Source of the DNA: Candidatus Aenigmatarchaeota archaeon
GTDB lineage: Archaea > Aenigmatarchaeota > Aenigmatarchaeia > PWEA01
Direction of reading: 5' to 3'
Assembly (NCBI GenBank): GCA_046539325.1
Contig: JBKHHD010000006.1
Coordinates: 1 to 64,000 of the forward strand
Length of the DNA stretch: 64,000 bases
The number at the start of each line of letters is the position of its first letter. The stretch's first letter is position 1. A program made the translations under genes and the position numbers. Below are positions 1,867 through 27,597 of this stretch, piece after piece. The notes under the pieces were generated by a model. That model saw only the letters and a program-made list of their open reading frames with translations. It was not told where the DNA came from and made no database searches.

Positions 1867-2889
1867 ATGAAGATTCTCGACAGTGACGAAAAGGAAGGCA
1901 TGTTGAAGCTTAAAGTAGAGAATCCCAACGACGTCTGGGAACTAGATAACGTGCTGGAGGAAGGCGATTTCGTGAATGCAAAAACTATGAGGAGGAAGAT
2001 GATTGACAGGGAGGAAGGCCAGGAAAAGGGTAACAAAAGGCCTGTATATCTTACCCTGAAAATAGACAAGATGAAGTTCCATGAGCACACAGGGAACCTT
2101 CGTCTCACAGGTCCAATAGTGGACGGTCCCGAGGACGTTGAAATAGACAACTACCACACCATAGTTGCGGAGCCTGGAAAGGTTCTTACCATCGTTAAGG
2201 AAGATGGATGGAAAGAATGGCAGATGCGAACGATACGGAGAGCTTACAAAAAGCCGCCCGAGGTCCTGGTATGTGTTCTCGACAGAGAAGAAGCTACTAT
2301 AGCGAGGGTAAGCAACGGTAAGGATATAATAACTACTGTGCGATCTGGTGGTTCAGGAAAGCAGTACGAGGGGGGAGACGACGAGGAATATCTGGGCGAA
2401 GTAGCCTCTATAATAAGAAGGAGGGAGGAGAACTTCGATAAAATAGTCGTAGCTGGACCTGGATTTGTAAAGGATAAAATTTACAAGATGCTCGAGGAAG
2501 ACCTTTCTGAAAAGTCCGTCAAGGCGAATACAAGCCATTCTGGAACCACTGGCGTAGAAGAGGTAATAAAAAGAGGTGTTATAGAGAAGGTTGTCGAAGA
2601 TTCTCGAATTTCTGATGAAAGCTCTGCTGTCGAAAGGCTTTTGGAGGAGTTCTCCAAGGATTCCGGTGAGGTGGCGTACGGAATAGAAGACGTCGACAAA
2701 GCCGTGGAAATGGGCGCGGTCAAGAAAATACTGGTTTCAGAGAAGAAATTGAAGGATCTCAGGGATCTTGTTAACAAAGCTGAGGAAAGGGGCGCAGAAG
2801 TAATGATCATTTCAGCAAGACACGAAGGTGGTGAAAAGCTAAGTAAAATAGGCGGGATAGCAGCACTTCTAAGATATAGAATAAAATGA
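1867..2889 (+). CDS. pelA: mRNA surveillance protein Pelota
   Basis: ENPNDVWEL, NLRLTGPI, YHTI, VVAGPGF and GEKLSKIGGIAALLRY motifs. Confidence 0.95.
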   Translation: MKILDSDEKEGMLKLKVENPNDVWELDNVLEEGDFVNAKTMRRKMIDREEGQEKGNKRPVYLTLKIDKMKFHEHTGNLRLTGPIVDGPEDVEIDNYHTIVAEPGKVLTIVKEDGWKEWQMRTIRRAYKKPPEVLVCVLDREEATIARVSNGKDIITTVRSGGSGKQYEGGDDEEYLGEVASIIRRREENFDKIVVAGPGFVKDKIYKMLEEDLSEKSVKANTSHSGTTGVEEVIKRGVIEKVVEDSRISDESSAVERLLEEFSKDSGEVAYGIEDVDKAVEMGAVKKILVSEKKLKDLRDLVNKAEERGAEVMIISARHEGGEKLSKIGGIAALLRYRIK

Positions 2890-3037
2890 TGGACCCGGTG
2901 GGATTTGAACCCACGGTCTCCACCATTTCGGGTTTTGATGAACCTTTTTTCGAAAAAGGTTCTTGCCAAGGTGGCGTCTTTTCGGTACAACCGAAAATAA
3001 AAATTCGGTTTCCGTATTTCCACTAGACTACGGGCCC
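2890..3037 (-). tRNA. tRNA-Ala(GGC) with two 38-nt introns (D-loop 2980-3017; 37/38 at 2926-2963)
   Basis: Acceptor GGGCCCG/CGGGTCC with G3:U70; anticodon stem CCACC/GGTGG; loop TTGGCA|T; T-loop TTCAAAT; BHB-like pairing at both junctions. Confidence 0.9.
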
Positions 3038-3099
3038 TACTGTCAGATGAAATAAATTAAGATGTAAAGATAAAAAGATTGGGGTTGACCGGATACTCC

Positions 3100-3624
3100 T
3101 CAACGAACTACCTCATGTCCTGAAACCATCTCAGAGCCTTTCCAGAGGTAGTAGATGCTTAACGCGCCAGTAATCCCGAACATCATCCATTTGACCGTAG
3201 ACTCTTTTTTGTCCATGTGCACTACTCTCTCTTTATCACCGTACCTTTTCTCATGGCCTGAAACGGGTATGGACACCTTGTAAAGGAGATACAAAGCTGC
3301 TAACGGAGCAACAATGAACGAGATGAATCCAAAGGCTCCACCTACCATACCACCCCGAGTTCCTACGGCTGTTTCAGCAAAGATTGCTGATCCCCCTGCT
3401 ACAAGTATTATAGCAGGTAGAAGTAGGATTAGGAACCATTTACCTGTGGACTCCTTCTCATCTAAGTGATCAACAACCTGGTATTCATTTGACACACTGA
3501 CACCGTGGCCTGAGACTACTTCGGCAATCTTCCAAAGGTAGTACAGGTTTACGATAGGTATTAGAGCTATAATGAACCATGTCCATGTTGGCTCTTTGGA
3601 TTCTCTGTGTGAAAGATTTGGAAT
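3100..3624 (-). CDS. membrane protein with three internal repeats (H..KE.T..W...YLWK..E.VSGH); probable ATT start
   Basis: Track ORF 3100..3495 extends 43 codons upstream through a third repeat to ATT at 3624, preceded by GAGGTGA-TAAA; in-frame TGA just upstream. Confidence 0.8.
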   Translation of the reverse strand: MPNLSHRESKEPTWTWFIIALIPIVNLYYLWKIAEVVSGHGVSVSNEYQVVDHLDEKESTGKWFLILLLPAIILVAGGSAIFAETAVGTRGGMVGGAFGFISFIVAPLAALYLLYKVSIPVSGHEKRYGDKERVVHMDKKESTVKWMMFGITGALSIYYLWKGSEMVSGHEVVR

Positions 3625-3690
3625 TTTATCACCTCTTCAAGCTTTGTTTTATAAGTATAAAAATCTGGCCAACGGATATAGAGAAGAAAA

Positions 3691-3868
3691 TGGTGGGCCT
3701 GCGCGGATTTGAACCGCGGATCTCCACCTTTTCCCAGTCTTTTTCGCGAACGTTTTTGCAGCTTGCTGTAAAAAGGCTCCGTGAAGGTGGCGTCATTTGT
3801 GGACAACTCTTTTCGTGAACGTTTTGCGCGTCAGCGGAAAAGGTTCTTAGCCACTAGACTACAGGCCC
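3691..3868 (-). tRNA. tRNA-Val(CAC) with encoded CCA and two introns (D-loop 3797-3848, 52 nt; 37/38 at 3730-3779, 50 nt)
   Basis: Acceptor GGGCCTG/CAGGCCC-ACCA; CCACC-TTCACG|A-GGTGG; D-loop GTGG pairs with intron CCAC (BHB central helix). Confidence 0.9.
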
Positions 3869-3908
3869 ATGCCAACCACTTATATAACGTCAATATAATT
3901 TTATAGTT

Positions 3909-4406
3909 ATGTTTATGAATATTGCGGAAGCAGCTGAGGAAGCAGAGAAGCTTGATGAAATTCAGAAAATACTTTCTTCCGATGGTTTTCTCTGCTCGGC
4001 TTACTTCATGGTAAATAAGGACAAGAAACCAGAAAGCTGGAACCTTGCATTTTACTCCGAAGAACAAAAGGAGATAACAGCCGTGAAGGTAACAGAAGAA
4101 GGTGCGGAAGTAGGGGTTACAGATGCGCCGTTAAGGGAAGATACAGGTAAAATAAAGCTTGAGGAAGTTGATGTAAGTGCGGAGAAGGGCCTGGAAAGGA
4201 TAAAGGAAGTTCTCGAGGAAGAGTATTCAATTTCTTACGAAAAGATACTTTTTACTTTGAGAAGCGTCGATGATGGTCAGGAATGGAGGGGCGTATTTGT
4301 TGGGGAAAATCTTTCAATAGTCTCTATTGCTGTGAACACAAAGACGGGTGAAGTCACGGAAAAGGAGAAGAAAAGTATGAGTCCTGGAAAGTCCCTTGGT
4401 GGATAA
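3909..4406 (+). CDS. hypothetical protein
   Basis: 165 aa acidic ORF with host-like codon use; C-terminus loosely PepSY-like (IAVNTKTGEV). Confidence 0.7.
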   Translation: MFMNIAEAAEEAEKLDEIQKILSSDGFLCSAYFMVNKDKKPESWNLAFYSEEQKEITAVKVTEEGAEVGVTDAPLREDTGKIKLEEVDVSAEKGLERIKEVLEEEYSISYEKILFTLRSVDDGQEWRGVFVGENLSIVSIAVNTKTGEVTEKEKKSMSPGKSLGG

Positions 4407-4490
4407 AAGTAGGACGAGGATTGCTGAAGGAATCCTTCGAAAACCTTCCATTGAAAGATTTTTTTGCAATGTTTTTTCTAAAGAAGAAGA

Positions 4491-4645
4491 TGGGACCGCC
4501 GGGATTTGAACCCGAGATCTCCGGCTTTTACGCGTCGCGAAACAAAATTTACCGCGACGGGCCTTATAAGACCGGCGCTTTGGTCAAGTCTTTTGATGAA
4601 ACTTTTTCTAAAAGTTTCTTTCTAACCAAGCTAAGCCACGGTCCC
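4491..4645 (-). tRNA. tRNA-Ile(TAT) with two introns (22/23 at 4580-4621, 42 nt; 38/39 at 4526-4563, 38 nt)
   Basis: Acceptor GGGACCG/CGGTCCC-A; CCGGT-CTTATAA|GCCGG; BHB helices GGTT/GACC and TTAT/GTAA. Confidence 0.87.
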
Positions 4646-4709
4646 ATACCGAAACAAGGTATAGTTGCAGTTAAAGCTTTTTATTTTTGAGCAGTTAAAA
4701 AGATTTAAC

Positions 4710-25948: not shown

Positions 25949-26473
25949 ATGCAGATTCCTATAGTTGGTCTTGGCGAGATGTCCTCCGAAACTATCAAAA
26001 GAATGAAGAGTATGCTTAACAAGGACTTCAAAAAGCTGAAGTTTTACACTGCCGGAAGGTCCGAATTTCCTGAGAACAGCTTCAATGACTTCAGAGACCA
26101 GTACATGGCCGAAAGGCTGATGGACGAGTTTCGGGAGGACGGAATACAGGTAATCGTCACTGACGAAGATGTATACAGCAAAAGAAAGAACTACGTGTTT
26201 GGTGAATCTGAGTACAGAGGGCCTGCAGTAGTCAGCACCAAGAGGCTCGACCCTGCCTTCTACGATAGAGAAGGTGACAAAGAGAAAGCATTTCGAAGAA
26301 TGGAAAAGGTCGCCGTGCATCAACTAGGCCATTGCTTCGGCATGGACAACTGTGAGAATCCTGGCTGTGTCATGAATTCACCCAGCTCAGTAAAAGATCT
26401 GGACGATGGAAGCGCCGGCTTCTGTGAGGAATGCCAGGTAGAGATCTCTACGAAGGGCCTTCCGCTCAAATAG
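25949..26473 (+). CDS. archaemetzincin-like protein with degenerate active site
   Basis: RDQY.A, NYVFG, AVVST.RL, HQLGHCFGMDNC, CVM..S, FCEEC. Confidence 0.85.
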   Translation: MQIPIVGLGEMSSETIKRMKSMLNKDFKKLKFYTAGRSEFPENSFNDFRDQYMAERLMDEFREDGIQVIVTDEDVYSKRKNYVFGESEYRGPAVVSTKRLDPAFYDREGDKEKAFRRMEKVAVHQLGHCFGMDNCENPGCVMNSPSSVKDLDDGSAGFCEECQVEISTKGLPLK

Positions 26474-26514
26474 ATTTAAAAGACTCTGCTTCATTAAAGT
26501 TCTGGGGTGTCCTT

Positions 26515-27597
26515 ATGCAGAAAGCAAGGATAGAAGATGGGAAAATAACCGTCGAAGAAGATCCGGAAGAAGTCTTCCAGCTTGGCGGATACGGAAAGCT
26601 TGAGAGTGGAGGACTTATCTTAAAGCCGGTGGAGGCTATGAGCCTTCTACAGAGGGAGAAGATCGAAGTGGTTAAAGACGGAGAGAATCTTACAGAGGAG
26701 GAACTGTACAAAGAAGCCTGTAGTATGACTGAAGGCTTCCATGAAGAGTTGCTTGTATATCAGGATATGAGGAGAAGGGGTTTCGTAGTTAGGCCTGGTT
26801 ACTCCTTTCCCTGTGACCTAAGAGTCTACGAAAGAGGCACATCCTTCGACGAGGACGAGAAGAAGTTGAACCACGTCAAGTGGCTCGTCGACGTTGTAAG
26901 GACTGATTCTGACTTCTCTCTTGTGGAGAAGATAAAGAAGGTTGAGAACGCTGACAACATAAGAGCAAAGCTTGCCCTCGGAATCGTAGACGAAGAAGGC
27001 GATGTAACATACTACGAGGTCGATAAAGAGAAGAAGTTGAACAGTAAAACTTCCAAAGATCTGGACGGTACGGAAAGGGCGAAGGGATTTCTGGATGGAA
27101 ACACGGTCACGGTCTGGGAAAACCTTGAAGGAATATACGAACCACATTACTTTGGCAAGAAGAGGAAGAGTAGGATAGAGCTTAACCTAATGGAGGCCGT
27201 TTTCCTTGCTGAAAGGGACAAGCTTGAGGTTGCAAGGGGCGAAGAAAAAGTAACTGTAGAAGAGCTTCTCGAGATAGCAAGGGAAAAAGATATAGAGTTC
27301 GAGGACAAATATAAGGTATACGAGGATCTGAGAGAAAAGGGGTTCCTTGTAAAGTGTGGGTTCAAATTTGGGACGCATTTCCGCGTCTACGACCGCGGCG
27401 TTGAACTTAAAAGAGGCCAGAAAAGTCCTGACGAGCATACGAAGTGGGTAGTCCATGCTGTCCCTTCAGATGAAAAGTGGTCGTATCCAGAGCTTTCGCG
27501 CTTCGTCAGACTAGCTTTAAATATTAGGAGCAAACCAACATTAGGCGTCGTGGACAAATCAAAAAAATACTACAGAATAAGGAGGATAAAACCATGA
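26515..27597 (+). CDS. endA: tRNA-splicing endonuclease, two-unit (alpha2-like) form
   Basis: Two repeats of VY.D.R.RG..V..G..F....RVY.RG; C-terminal unit KFGTHFRVY..EH; N-terminal unit has the acidic loop DEEGDVTYY. Confidence 0.93.
   Translation: MQKARIEDGKITVEEDPEEVFQLGGYGKLESGGLILKPVEAMSLLQREKIEVVKDGENLTEEELYKEACSMTEGFHEELLVYQDMRRRGFVVRPGYSFPCDLRVYERGTSFDEDEKKLNHVKWLVDVVRTDSDFSLVEKIKKVENADNIRAKLALGIVDEEGDVTYYEVDKEKKLNSKTSKDLDGTERAKGFLDGNTVTVWENLEGIYEPHYFGKKRKSRIELNLMEAVFLAERDKLEVARGEEKVTVEELLEIAREKDIEFEDKYKVYEDLREKGFLVKCGFKFGTHFRVYDRGVELKRGQKSPDEHTKWVVHAVPSDEKWSYPELSRFVRLALNIRSKPTLGVVDKSKKYYRIRRIKP

Follow-up and report, generated by a model that had tools for sequence, protein, structure and literature searches.

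A hairpin-plus-tail module shared by introns at different positions of tRNA genes in an Aenigmatarchaeota-like archaeon

Three tRNA genes with two introns each

The window analysed here is a 64,000-nt stretch of archaeal DNA (contig JBKHHD010000006.1 of assembly GCA_046539325.1, positions 1 to 64,000 of the forward strand), the minus strand of which carries, between 2890 and 4650, the genes of tRNA-Ala(GGC) (2891-3037), tRNA-Val(CAC) (3695-3868) and tRNA-Ile(UAU) (4492-4645). Each gene is interrupted by two introns, and four of the six introns contain a short palindromic module, a hairpin followed by an A-rich tail. The original prediction, made from the letters of this stretch, had quoted four strings as evidence that one palindromic family supplies introns to different positions of these three tRNAs. 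All four strings can be read on the minus strand exactly as quoted, and searches with a covariance model (CM) and the clustering of module copies agree with a palindromic module at different positions of different tRNAs. The genome of the window (G000; 715 kb in 10 contigs, ~45% G+C, 91% complete) encodes a Pelota that is 63-82% identical to the Pelota of metagenome-assembled genomes named 'Candidatus Aenigmatarchaeota archaeon', the closest named records. In total 33 tRNA genes were recognised in it, ~24-25 of which are interrupted, judged by length.

The Val and Ile genes are matched by the Rfam tRNA model with 41.1 bits (inserts of 55 and 53 nt) and 44.3 bits (inserts of 49 and 39 nt), respectively; removal of the segments restores a canonical tRNA, both genes being aligned by Rfam across their inserts. 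The Ala gene obtained only 29.3 bits, from the tRNA-clan tmRNA model and below its cut-off, therefore its parse rests on hand reading, with a scan for the acceptor and T-arm, and on orthologues with other intron content. Intron-less orthologous sites are extant for the Val D-loop (in the related genome G001) and for position 37/38 of tRNA-Ala (in G003 and G001), and the spliced Val(CAC) D-arm is the same as the intron-less D-arm of the G001 Val(CAC).

The limits of the introns were set by the rule that the last 6 nt of the 5' exon and the last 6 nt of the intron comprise four paired and two bulged bases; the helix between exon and intron is referred to as H. The four module-bearing introns are (i) the Ala 37/38 intron (2926-2963, 38 nt, module core 2931-2962), with the H helix TTGG/CCGA paired at 4/4 positions and a CM score of 39.8 bits; (ii) the Val D-loop intron (3797-3848, 52 nt, core 3808-3846), with H GTGG/CCAC paired at 4/4 positions and 52.8 bits; (iii) the Val 37/38 intron (3730-3779, 50 nt, core 3739-3779), with H paired at 3/4 positions and 48 bits; and (iv) the Ile 22/23 intron in the D-arm (4580-4621, 42 nt, core 4589-4618), with H GGTT/GACC paired at 4/4 positions and 34.1 bits. 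The claim that the last ~6 nt differ between the hosts and pair with the respective exon thus holds with full pairing in three of the introns and with 3/4 pairs in one. Runs of 4-6 T, which resemble archaeal termination signals, lie inside these essential tRNA genes at 2926-2963, 3730-3779 and 3797-3848.

The module and its two subfamilies

Read in tRNA sense, the module consists of a 5' arm (GAAMC followed by 4-5 T), a variable loop of 2 to >40 nt, an A-run with the complementary arm, and the A-rich tail, after which a second, distal copy of the 3' arm often follows before the ~6 host-specific bases. Its length is 28-56 nt, and its arms of 9-10 bp qualify as terminal inverted repeats. Two subfamilies were read from 96 module rows of many genomes. 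Subfamily A, to which the Ala 37/38 and Ile 22/23 copies belong, has perfectly complementary arms and the tail ATCAAAA, while subfamily B, found in both Val introns, has a conserved C.C mismatch at arm position 5 (GAACC vs CGTTC) and one of the tails RCGAAAAAG, ACGGAAA or ATGAAAA. An exact distal complement of the 5' arm lies at most 45 nt away in 23 of the 96 rows and so is not universal; in subfamily B, changes of the 5' arm (GGACC, CCACC and CAGCC variants) are matched in the proximal and distal arms alike.

Pairwise local alignments of the window introns were scored against 1000 dinucleotide shuffles. Within the subfamilies the similarity is plain (Ala 37/38 vs Ile D-arm, z 6.0; Val D-loop vs Val 37/38, z 5.0; 0/1000 shuffles as good in either case). 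Between the subfamilies it is lower for Val D-loop vs Ile D-arm (z 3.3, 10/1000 shuffles) and Ala 37/38 vs Val D-loop (z 2.6, 21/1000), and not significant for Ala 37/38 vs Val 37/38 and Val 37/38 vs Ile D-arm (z 0.4 each). The window alone therefore shows two clear pairs and a weaker link between them. We accept a single family because the CM matches almost exclusively tRNA genes in G000 and related genomes, the stem covaries and the relatives hold forms intermediate between A and B. The 'one family' of the original prediction stands in this linked sense; on the aligned rows, it is two conserved subfamilies.

The covariation of the stem was assessed on 85 distinct rows, in which 97.4% of the stem cells are paired; both partners are altered in 73 cells, whereas shuffles gave 13.4+-2.8 (0/500). 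Pair 1, for example, is GC in 58 rows, UA in 12, AU in 9 and CG in 5, and pair 4 is CG in 49, AU in 23, UA in 6 and GC in 4. The alignment was fitted to the model and thereby favours pairing; the compensatory types are nonetheless plain in the raw listing of the rows. Folding energy alone is not distinctive for the module, the z-scores against shuffles being -3.35 for Ala 37/38, -1.68 for Ile D-arm, -0.72 for Val D-loop and +0.21 for Val 37/38. A search of window 2850-4700 against Rfam (E<=1) returned only tRNA-clan and chance-level matches and no family for the module.

Copies in the genome and in its relatives

A search of G000 with a regular expression and with a CM built from seven copies located the module in eight introns of 7/33 tRNA genes and in one trailer, all in tRNA sense, so that four kinds of sites are represented: the D-arm, position 37/38, the T-loop (59/60) and the sequence directly after a tRNA 3' end. 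Besides the window copies, these are the D-loop copy of Val(GAC), nearly identical to that of Val(CAC); the 37/38 copies of Cys and of Thr(GGT) (G000:C2:6816-6983, L003), the latter with a ~45-nt insert nested in its 3' arm; the T-loop copy of Gly(CCC) (CM E 1.3e-3); and the trailer copy of Pro(CGG), which starts right after the CCA end and reaches the next gene. A ribosome-binding-like motif and a start codon follow the Pro(CGG) copy. Nested inserts of ~45 nt between the A-run and the 3' arm, as in Thr(GGT), were also seen in the Val 37/38 and Ala D-loop copies of G006 (L042). Weak CM matches of G000 (E>=0.3) in 16S rRNA or apparent coding sequence were set aside as noise.

The relatives were scanned as well, as the original prediction had recommended. 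At E<=0.01 the CM matched 24 of 41 related genomes (G000 included; 17 have no match), among them 6/7 of the other genus genomes and 7/8 of the family genomes, with E-values that go as low as 2e-7 in single genomes. In a sample spread evenly over the phylum, 25/151 genomes gave matches at E<=0.001, with a patchy distribution by family (6/6, 4/7 and 4/14 in some families; 0/32 and 0/11 in others). In G001-G008 all 35 matches lie in or beside tRNA genes, 34 of them in tRNA sense and one antisense, just outside a gene.

Copies are also present outside introns. They stand directly behind tRNA 3' ends in G000, G001, G002, G003, G013 and G031, and in distant relatives between protein genes and antisense beside tRNA genes. 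In G021 (L077) and G028 (L082) the 16S rRNA has insertions of 52 and 51 nt at the tips of hairpin loops, inside which module copies lie in rRNA sense. The similarity in excess of shuffles, the non-intron copies and the differences between orthologous tRNAs described below run counter to both outcomes named beforehand as damaging to the original prediction, namely a similarity no better than that of shuffled AT-rich hairpins, and identical intron positions inherited vertically across the clade with no copies outside introns.

Several of these copies lie in unusual surroundings. The 16S rRNA of G028 has a further insertion of 128 nt near the module-bearing one, and the same genome holds a composite intergenic repeat (L018, L083, L085, L086, L087) in which a subfamily A module is joined to a second conserved hairpin unit that starts with the Shine-Dalgarno-like GGAGG. 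Tandem repeats, each composed of the first 16 nt of a tRNA and then a module copy, lie upstream of the real tRNA concerned in G018 (L088), G014 (L093) and G017 (L090/L025). Direct repeats flank the non-intron copy L068 of G008 (~15 nt of a tRNA 3' end) and the copies L015 and L073 of G016 (~17-30 nt of a gene leader).

Public metagenome contigs with window 2919-2935, 3723-3830 and 4589-4621 end at or near modules, as expected when an assembler meets a repeat, so such tRNA loci are prone to fragmentation. Contig joints that link module copies of different loci or organisms in four metagenome runs were discarded, being only consistent with a repeat. A look-up of RNA runs for window 2600-4700 returned none that contains the stretch.

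Turnover among congeners

The syntenic loci of seven congeners were parsed by script and by eye, and close relatives proved to differ, site by site, in both the presence and the type of the module, as the comparison of orthologues proposed at the outset was meant to reveal. The Ala D-loop is interrupted in every genome, by the module in G003, G001 and G006 and by an unrelated 'type X' intron in G000, G002, G004 and G007. At Ala 37/38 the module is present in G000, a diverged hairpin in G002 and other intron types in G004, G006 and G007, while G003 and G001 have no intron. The Val D-loop has a subfamily B module in G000, a subfamily A module in G002, unrelated introns in G003 and G006 and no intron in G001. 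At Val 37/38, where no genome lacks an intron, subfamily B in G000 stands against a single subfamily A variant in G002, G003 and G006 (with a nested insert in the last) and an unrelated intron in G001. The Ile D-arm, likewise interrupted throughout, holds the module in G000, G003 and G001 (another variant in the last), a 19-nt module-free intron in G002, G004 and G007 and yet another intron in G005; the exon-pairing end of these introns is the same in all.

A Pelota tree joins G000 with G003 as sisters (97/98), the only node that it resolves. The two genomes differ at Ala D-loop, Ala 37/38, Val D-loop and Val 37/38, therefore several of the intron differences postdate a recent split. The difference at Val 37/38 concerns the whole intron, including the guide bases, and at Ala 37/38 the simplest reading is loss in G003.

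Sharing across sites was assessed by single-linkage clustering (>=85% identity) of the module cores, not the whole introns, of 46 labelled copies from nine genomes. Four clusters, each covering at least two host sites, took up 34/46 copies. An identical 32-nt module occurs in the Ser T-loop and the Ile D-arm of G001 and in the Gln T-loop of both G003 and G007, and the only difference between it and the Ala 37/38 copy of the window is at the end; the flanking DNA of these genomes matches the window at 66-78% identity (aligned stretches of at least 250 bases).

Introns outside the family behave similarly. The 'type X' intron of the window (2980-3017, minus strand), whose limits are ambiguous in an A-run and whose candidate helix GTGG/CCGA pairs at 3/4 positions, occupies the Ala D-loop of four genomes and resembles the intron in the Val D-loop of G006, and a 'type Y' intron is found at Ala 37/38 of G004 and G007 and at Val 37/38 of G001 (L038, L039, L040, L042 and window 2980-3017 are the loci concerned). 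The module family is therefore not the sole exchangeable type of intron.

Predicted role in splicing

The position of the module within its introns is nearly invariable: it starts 0-1 nt past the 5' splice site in the curated rows and 2-3 nt past it in D-arm copies read by hand. Exon pairing was tabulated for 15 introns at 37/38, which were retained by hand out of 23 since the automatic classes had mislabelled D-arm, 16S and reverse-strand rows as '37/38'; H is complete (4/4) in 12 and 3/4 in three, the chance of at least 3/4 being ~0.15. Eight T-loop introns (8/11 kept as parsed, the automatic parse having ended early in three) have H paired at 3/4 or 4/4 positions; in these, the 5' arm and the distal second 3' arm make up an inner helix of 6-11 bp. 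We infer that the hairpin supplies the inner helix of the splicing motif and that the introns, as modelled, would be spliced.

The minimum-energy fold of the Ala 37/38 intron comprises a 5-bp anticodon stem, the 4-bp H helix, a 3-nt 5' bulge and the 10-bp hairpin, followed on the 3' side by an 8-nt linker and a clean 3-nt 3' bulge. When the subfamily B introns are folded, the partner of the 5' arm is the tail or the distal arm and not the mismatched proximal arm; the outer helix of the Val 37/38 intron is the anticodon stem, and the outer helices of the D-arm introns are weak. The splicing motifs of the window introns are relaxed, not canonical bulge-helix-bulge (BHB) motifs. A permissive BHB scan, which yields many candidates per gene and by itself is no evidence, ranked the expected site first for Val 37/38 and the Gly T-loop and second for Cys and Thr, and dropped Ala 37/38, Ile D-arm and Val D-loop at the flanking-helix filter.

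The machinery presumed to act on these introns is encoded in G000. The splicing endonuclease EndA (26431-27597 of the window, plus strand; 388 aa), the only EndA match of the genome, combines two N-terminal with two catalytic domains in a single chain, and both catalytic-type domains score well; the ligase RtcB is encoded at G000:C3:61888-63189. The available part of Kaneta et al. 2018 (PMC5829648) gives alpha4, (alpha-beta)2 and epsilon2 as EndA types of DPANN archaea and mentions a 'missing alpha-prime-2 type', yet G000 is rich in non-canonical introns.

A proposed portable intron cassette and its alternatives

We propose, with a probability that we would put at about even, that each of the four introns is a copy of one small, portable type of intron cassette that spread at the DNA level. 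The arm helix of the module would serve as the inner helix (h') of a relaxed BHB motif, four of the last six intron bases would pair, as helix H, with the exon bases 3-6 nt before the 5' splice site, and the outer helix would be provided by the D-, anticodon- or T-stem of the host, for which reason the copies would lie ~6 nt past these stems. The single two-unit EndA together with RtcB would then excise the intron. DNA-level copying would carry either the cassette or its hairpin-plus-tail core from one such place to another, the places being loops of structured-RNA genes, trailers of tRNAs and short spacers, and such copying would swap the interiors of existing introns and, probably, at times seed or remove introns.

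A more specific form of this proposal, which we think unlikely, is that of a non-autonomous 'intron seed' of 30-60 nt that copies itself into the apices of structured-RNA loops across a DPANN class, bringing its own inner helix, relying on ~4 nt of exon complementarity and, in subfamily B, acting as a two-state switch. The complementarity of ~4 nt would have to be fortuitous or quickly acquired for the seed to become spliced by EndA, and in the switch the weakened proximal hairpin (C.C mismatch) would compete with the perfect distal arm, licensing cleavage.

A number of observations weigh against the portable cassette. The 5' splice site of the Ala 37/38 intron lies in a 3x8 internal loop of the minimum-energy fold, not in a clean bulge, several H helices are absent from such folds, and the hairpins of subfamily B do not exceed shuffles in stability. 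The Glu copy of G001 starts 19 nt into its intron, the sole exception seen to the position near the splice site. The host-site labels and context calls were made by eye. Intron positions are mostly common to the congeners, so that vertical inheritance explains the position. Content swaps and presence/absence are demonstrable, but not clean de novo gain, which stops short of the colonisation of tRNA genes put forward in the original prediction. A comparison of filled with empty orthologous intron sites showed no target-site duplication; variable direct repeats of ~15-30 nt flank only a few non-intron copies. Searches of the 91%-complete G000 gave no Y1 transposase (PF01797), no reverse transcriptase and, above cut-off, no TnpB; they extended neither to DDE transposases and integrases nor to the relatives. 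Finally, the conservation of the module is high and includes a mismatch, which fits a selected RNA function as well as it fits mobility.

This last point leads to the explanation that the module is a selected RNA structure, acting in pre-tRNA folding, in recognition by EndA or as a switch between proximal and distal helices, that was moved by recombination or gene conversion with no element-like mobility. The covariation of the stem, the fixed position at the 5' end of the intron, the coupling of the C.C mismatch to a particular tail in several families of genomes and the joint response of the proximal and distal arms of subfamily B to changes of the 5' arm would all follow from it, and the Ala and Val genes, 650 nt apart and with long identical exon stretches, could undergo gene conversion at the same position. 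We regard it as rather unlikely, since it accounts neither for copies where splicing is not expected (spacers between protein genes, antisense copies by tRNAs, 16S rRNA loops) nor for the numerous introns in these genomes, two of the window's six among them, that lack the module; moreover, sharing among D-arm, 37/38, T-loop and trailer is impossible by exchange between homologous exons.

It is improbable, in our view, that the module is a passenger palindrome resembling repetitive extragenic palindromes (REPs) or miniature inverted-repeat transposable elements (MITEs), which inserts where it is tolerated into old, vertically inherited introns and has no part in splicing. Under random insertion the module would not be expected to start nearly always within 0-3 nt of the 5' splice site, nor to be in tRNA sense in 34/35 matches of the close relatives; whole-intron differences that include the guide bases (Val 37/38, G000 vs G003) go beyond the insertion of a passenger, and the defining features of REPs and MITEs are lacking. 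What such a passenger would explain is that intron positions are largely common within the genus while the interiors differ, that insertions are nested in modules (Thr(GGT); Val and Ala of G006), that copies lie in spacers and rRNA loops, and that variable direct repeats accompany some non-intron copies (G008 L068, G016 L015). The original prediction had likewise regarded the palindrome as merely made harmless by splicing; a hairpin placed so close to the 5' splice site (0-3 nt), and serving as inner helix in the predicted fold, does not bear this out.

That the module is a DNA-level signal at tRNA genes, either a terminator with its T-run behind CCA or a palindrome bound by a protein, is very improbable. 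Copies stand directly behind tRNA 3' ends in six genomes, and a run of 4-6 T, as in the module, is an archaeal termination signal; most copies, however, interrupt essential tRNA genes, in which a terminator would do harm, a loop of 2 to >40 nt is unfit for a dimeric operator, and compensatory changes of the stem indicate a hairpin and not a fixed protein site. Chance likeness of AT-rich hairpins in vertically inherited introns, to which the z of 0.4 of two of the four cross-subfamily window pairs and the weak folding z-scores of subfamily B might point, is refuted by the within-subfamily z of 5-6 (0/1000 shuffles), by CM matches that concentrate in tRNA genes of other genomes (E down to 2e-7), by identical 32-nt modules at non-homologous sites and by the covarying stem.

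Other features of the locus and annotation of split tRNA genes

The second intron of tRNA-Ile, at 37/38 (4526-4564, minus strand), is unrelated to the module, like the Ala D-loop intron. It corresponds to the 39-nt Rfam insert after CUUAUA, its register is ambiguous by one A, and the simple BHB rule gave no 3/4 helix at the canonical register. The anticodon UAU of this tRNA is kept in all seven congeners examined; a TiaS domain (PF08489) was not found in the 91%-complete G000 and no third CAU tRNA was seen. To our knowledge, UAU replaces the agmatidine-modified CAU in only a few archaea. A 165-aa open reading frame on the plus strand between the Val and Ile genes (3909-4406) has no Pfam match.

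Default ARAGORN called none of the three tRNA genes. With one intron allowed it detected the three loci, and named them Phe, Ala and 'Stop', misnaming them because each gene has two introns. Since standard finders miss or misname all three genes, the tRNA sets of such genomes appear incomplete though complete.

Comparison with known systems

We found no description of the module or of tRNA intron families in Aenigmatarchaeota in the literature searched, which took in few subscription papers and no supplements. The known systems considered below are compared on the parts of the cited sources that were available.

REPs are characterised by a GTAG/CGTC head and an associated RAYT/Y1 transposase, and MITEs by a fixed target duplication. 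Like these elements, the module is a short, dispersed, imperfect, non-coding palindrome with one conserved flank that resides at tolerated sites (PMC3733652, PMC3184786). The resemblance postulated in the original prediction ends there, however. The alignments of the module have no GTAG/CGTC head, no target duplication of fixed length was seen, the 28-56 nt unit occurs in ~9 copies per genome, and none of RAYT/Y1 transposase, TnpB above cut-off and reverse transcriptase turned up in the 91%-complete G000. In contrast to REPs and MITEs, the copies of the genus lie almost all inside tRNA genes, in one orientation, and would form part of a splicing motif.

In Caldiarchaeum, intron gain and the scattering of tRNA fragments were ascribed to an integrating mobile element of 1.8 kb that encodes a recombinase (Sugahara et al. 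2012, PMC3293823). Common to both cases, as far as that account was available, are a DNA-level route to introns, proposed here for the module, and partial tRNA copies nearby, such as the tandem 5' fragments of G018, G014 and G017; the module differs in that its unit is of 28-56 nt with no recombinase linked to it.

Relaxed BHB and bulge-helix-loop (BHL) introns at non-canonical positions were reportedly described by Marck and Grosjean in 2003. Relaxed helix-bulge tRNA introns at such positions are treated by Kaneta et al. 2018 (PMC5829648), and the module-bearing introns resemble them in their D-arm, anticodon loop and T-loop sites and in their imperfect flanking helices. They differ in that the available descriptions concern the motif only, and no shared portable sequence that supplies the inner helix.

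The closest parallel is that of the Thermoproteales. Fujishima and co-workers are said to have attributed the tRNA intron families of this order, in 2010, to 'large-scale intron transposition'. The available text of a 2014 review (PMC4090602) uses this term for similar introns in different tRNAs and at different positions, with the mechanism unknown, and a 2026 preprint (10.64898/2026.10.13.758758) assigns 28.3% of 272 Thermoproteales introns to such families. Similar introns in tRNAs of different identity and at different positions, with a mechanism that is unknown and presumed to operate at the DNA level, are what the Thermoproteales families and the module have in common. The module, however, is hosted by an Aenigmatarchaeota-like DPANN archaeon with a single-chain two-unit EndA; what is shared is not the whole intron, as in the accessible accounts of the Thermoproteales, but a short hairpin-plus-tail core in two subfamilies; and this core is also present in tRNA trailers, spacers and loops of 16S rRNA, and is conserved patchily across a whole class.

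How archaeal protein-spliced tRNA introns arrive is treated as an open question in the available parts of both sources (PMC4090602; 10.64898/2026.10.13.758758); the census of Asgard tRNAs in the latter tested tRNA-tRNA copying, mobile elements and reverse transcription and came to no general route of arrival. To this question the module contributes a defined, alignable unit that occupies three tRNA positions, would form part of the splicing motif, occurs outside introns as well and is turned over between sister genomes. If the 'intron seed' described above were real, it would be the long-sought route by which archaeal tRNA introns arrive.

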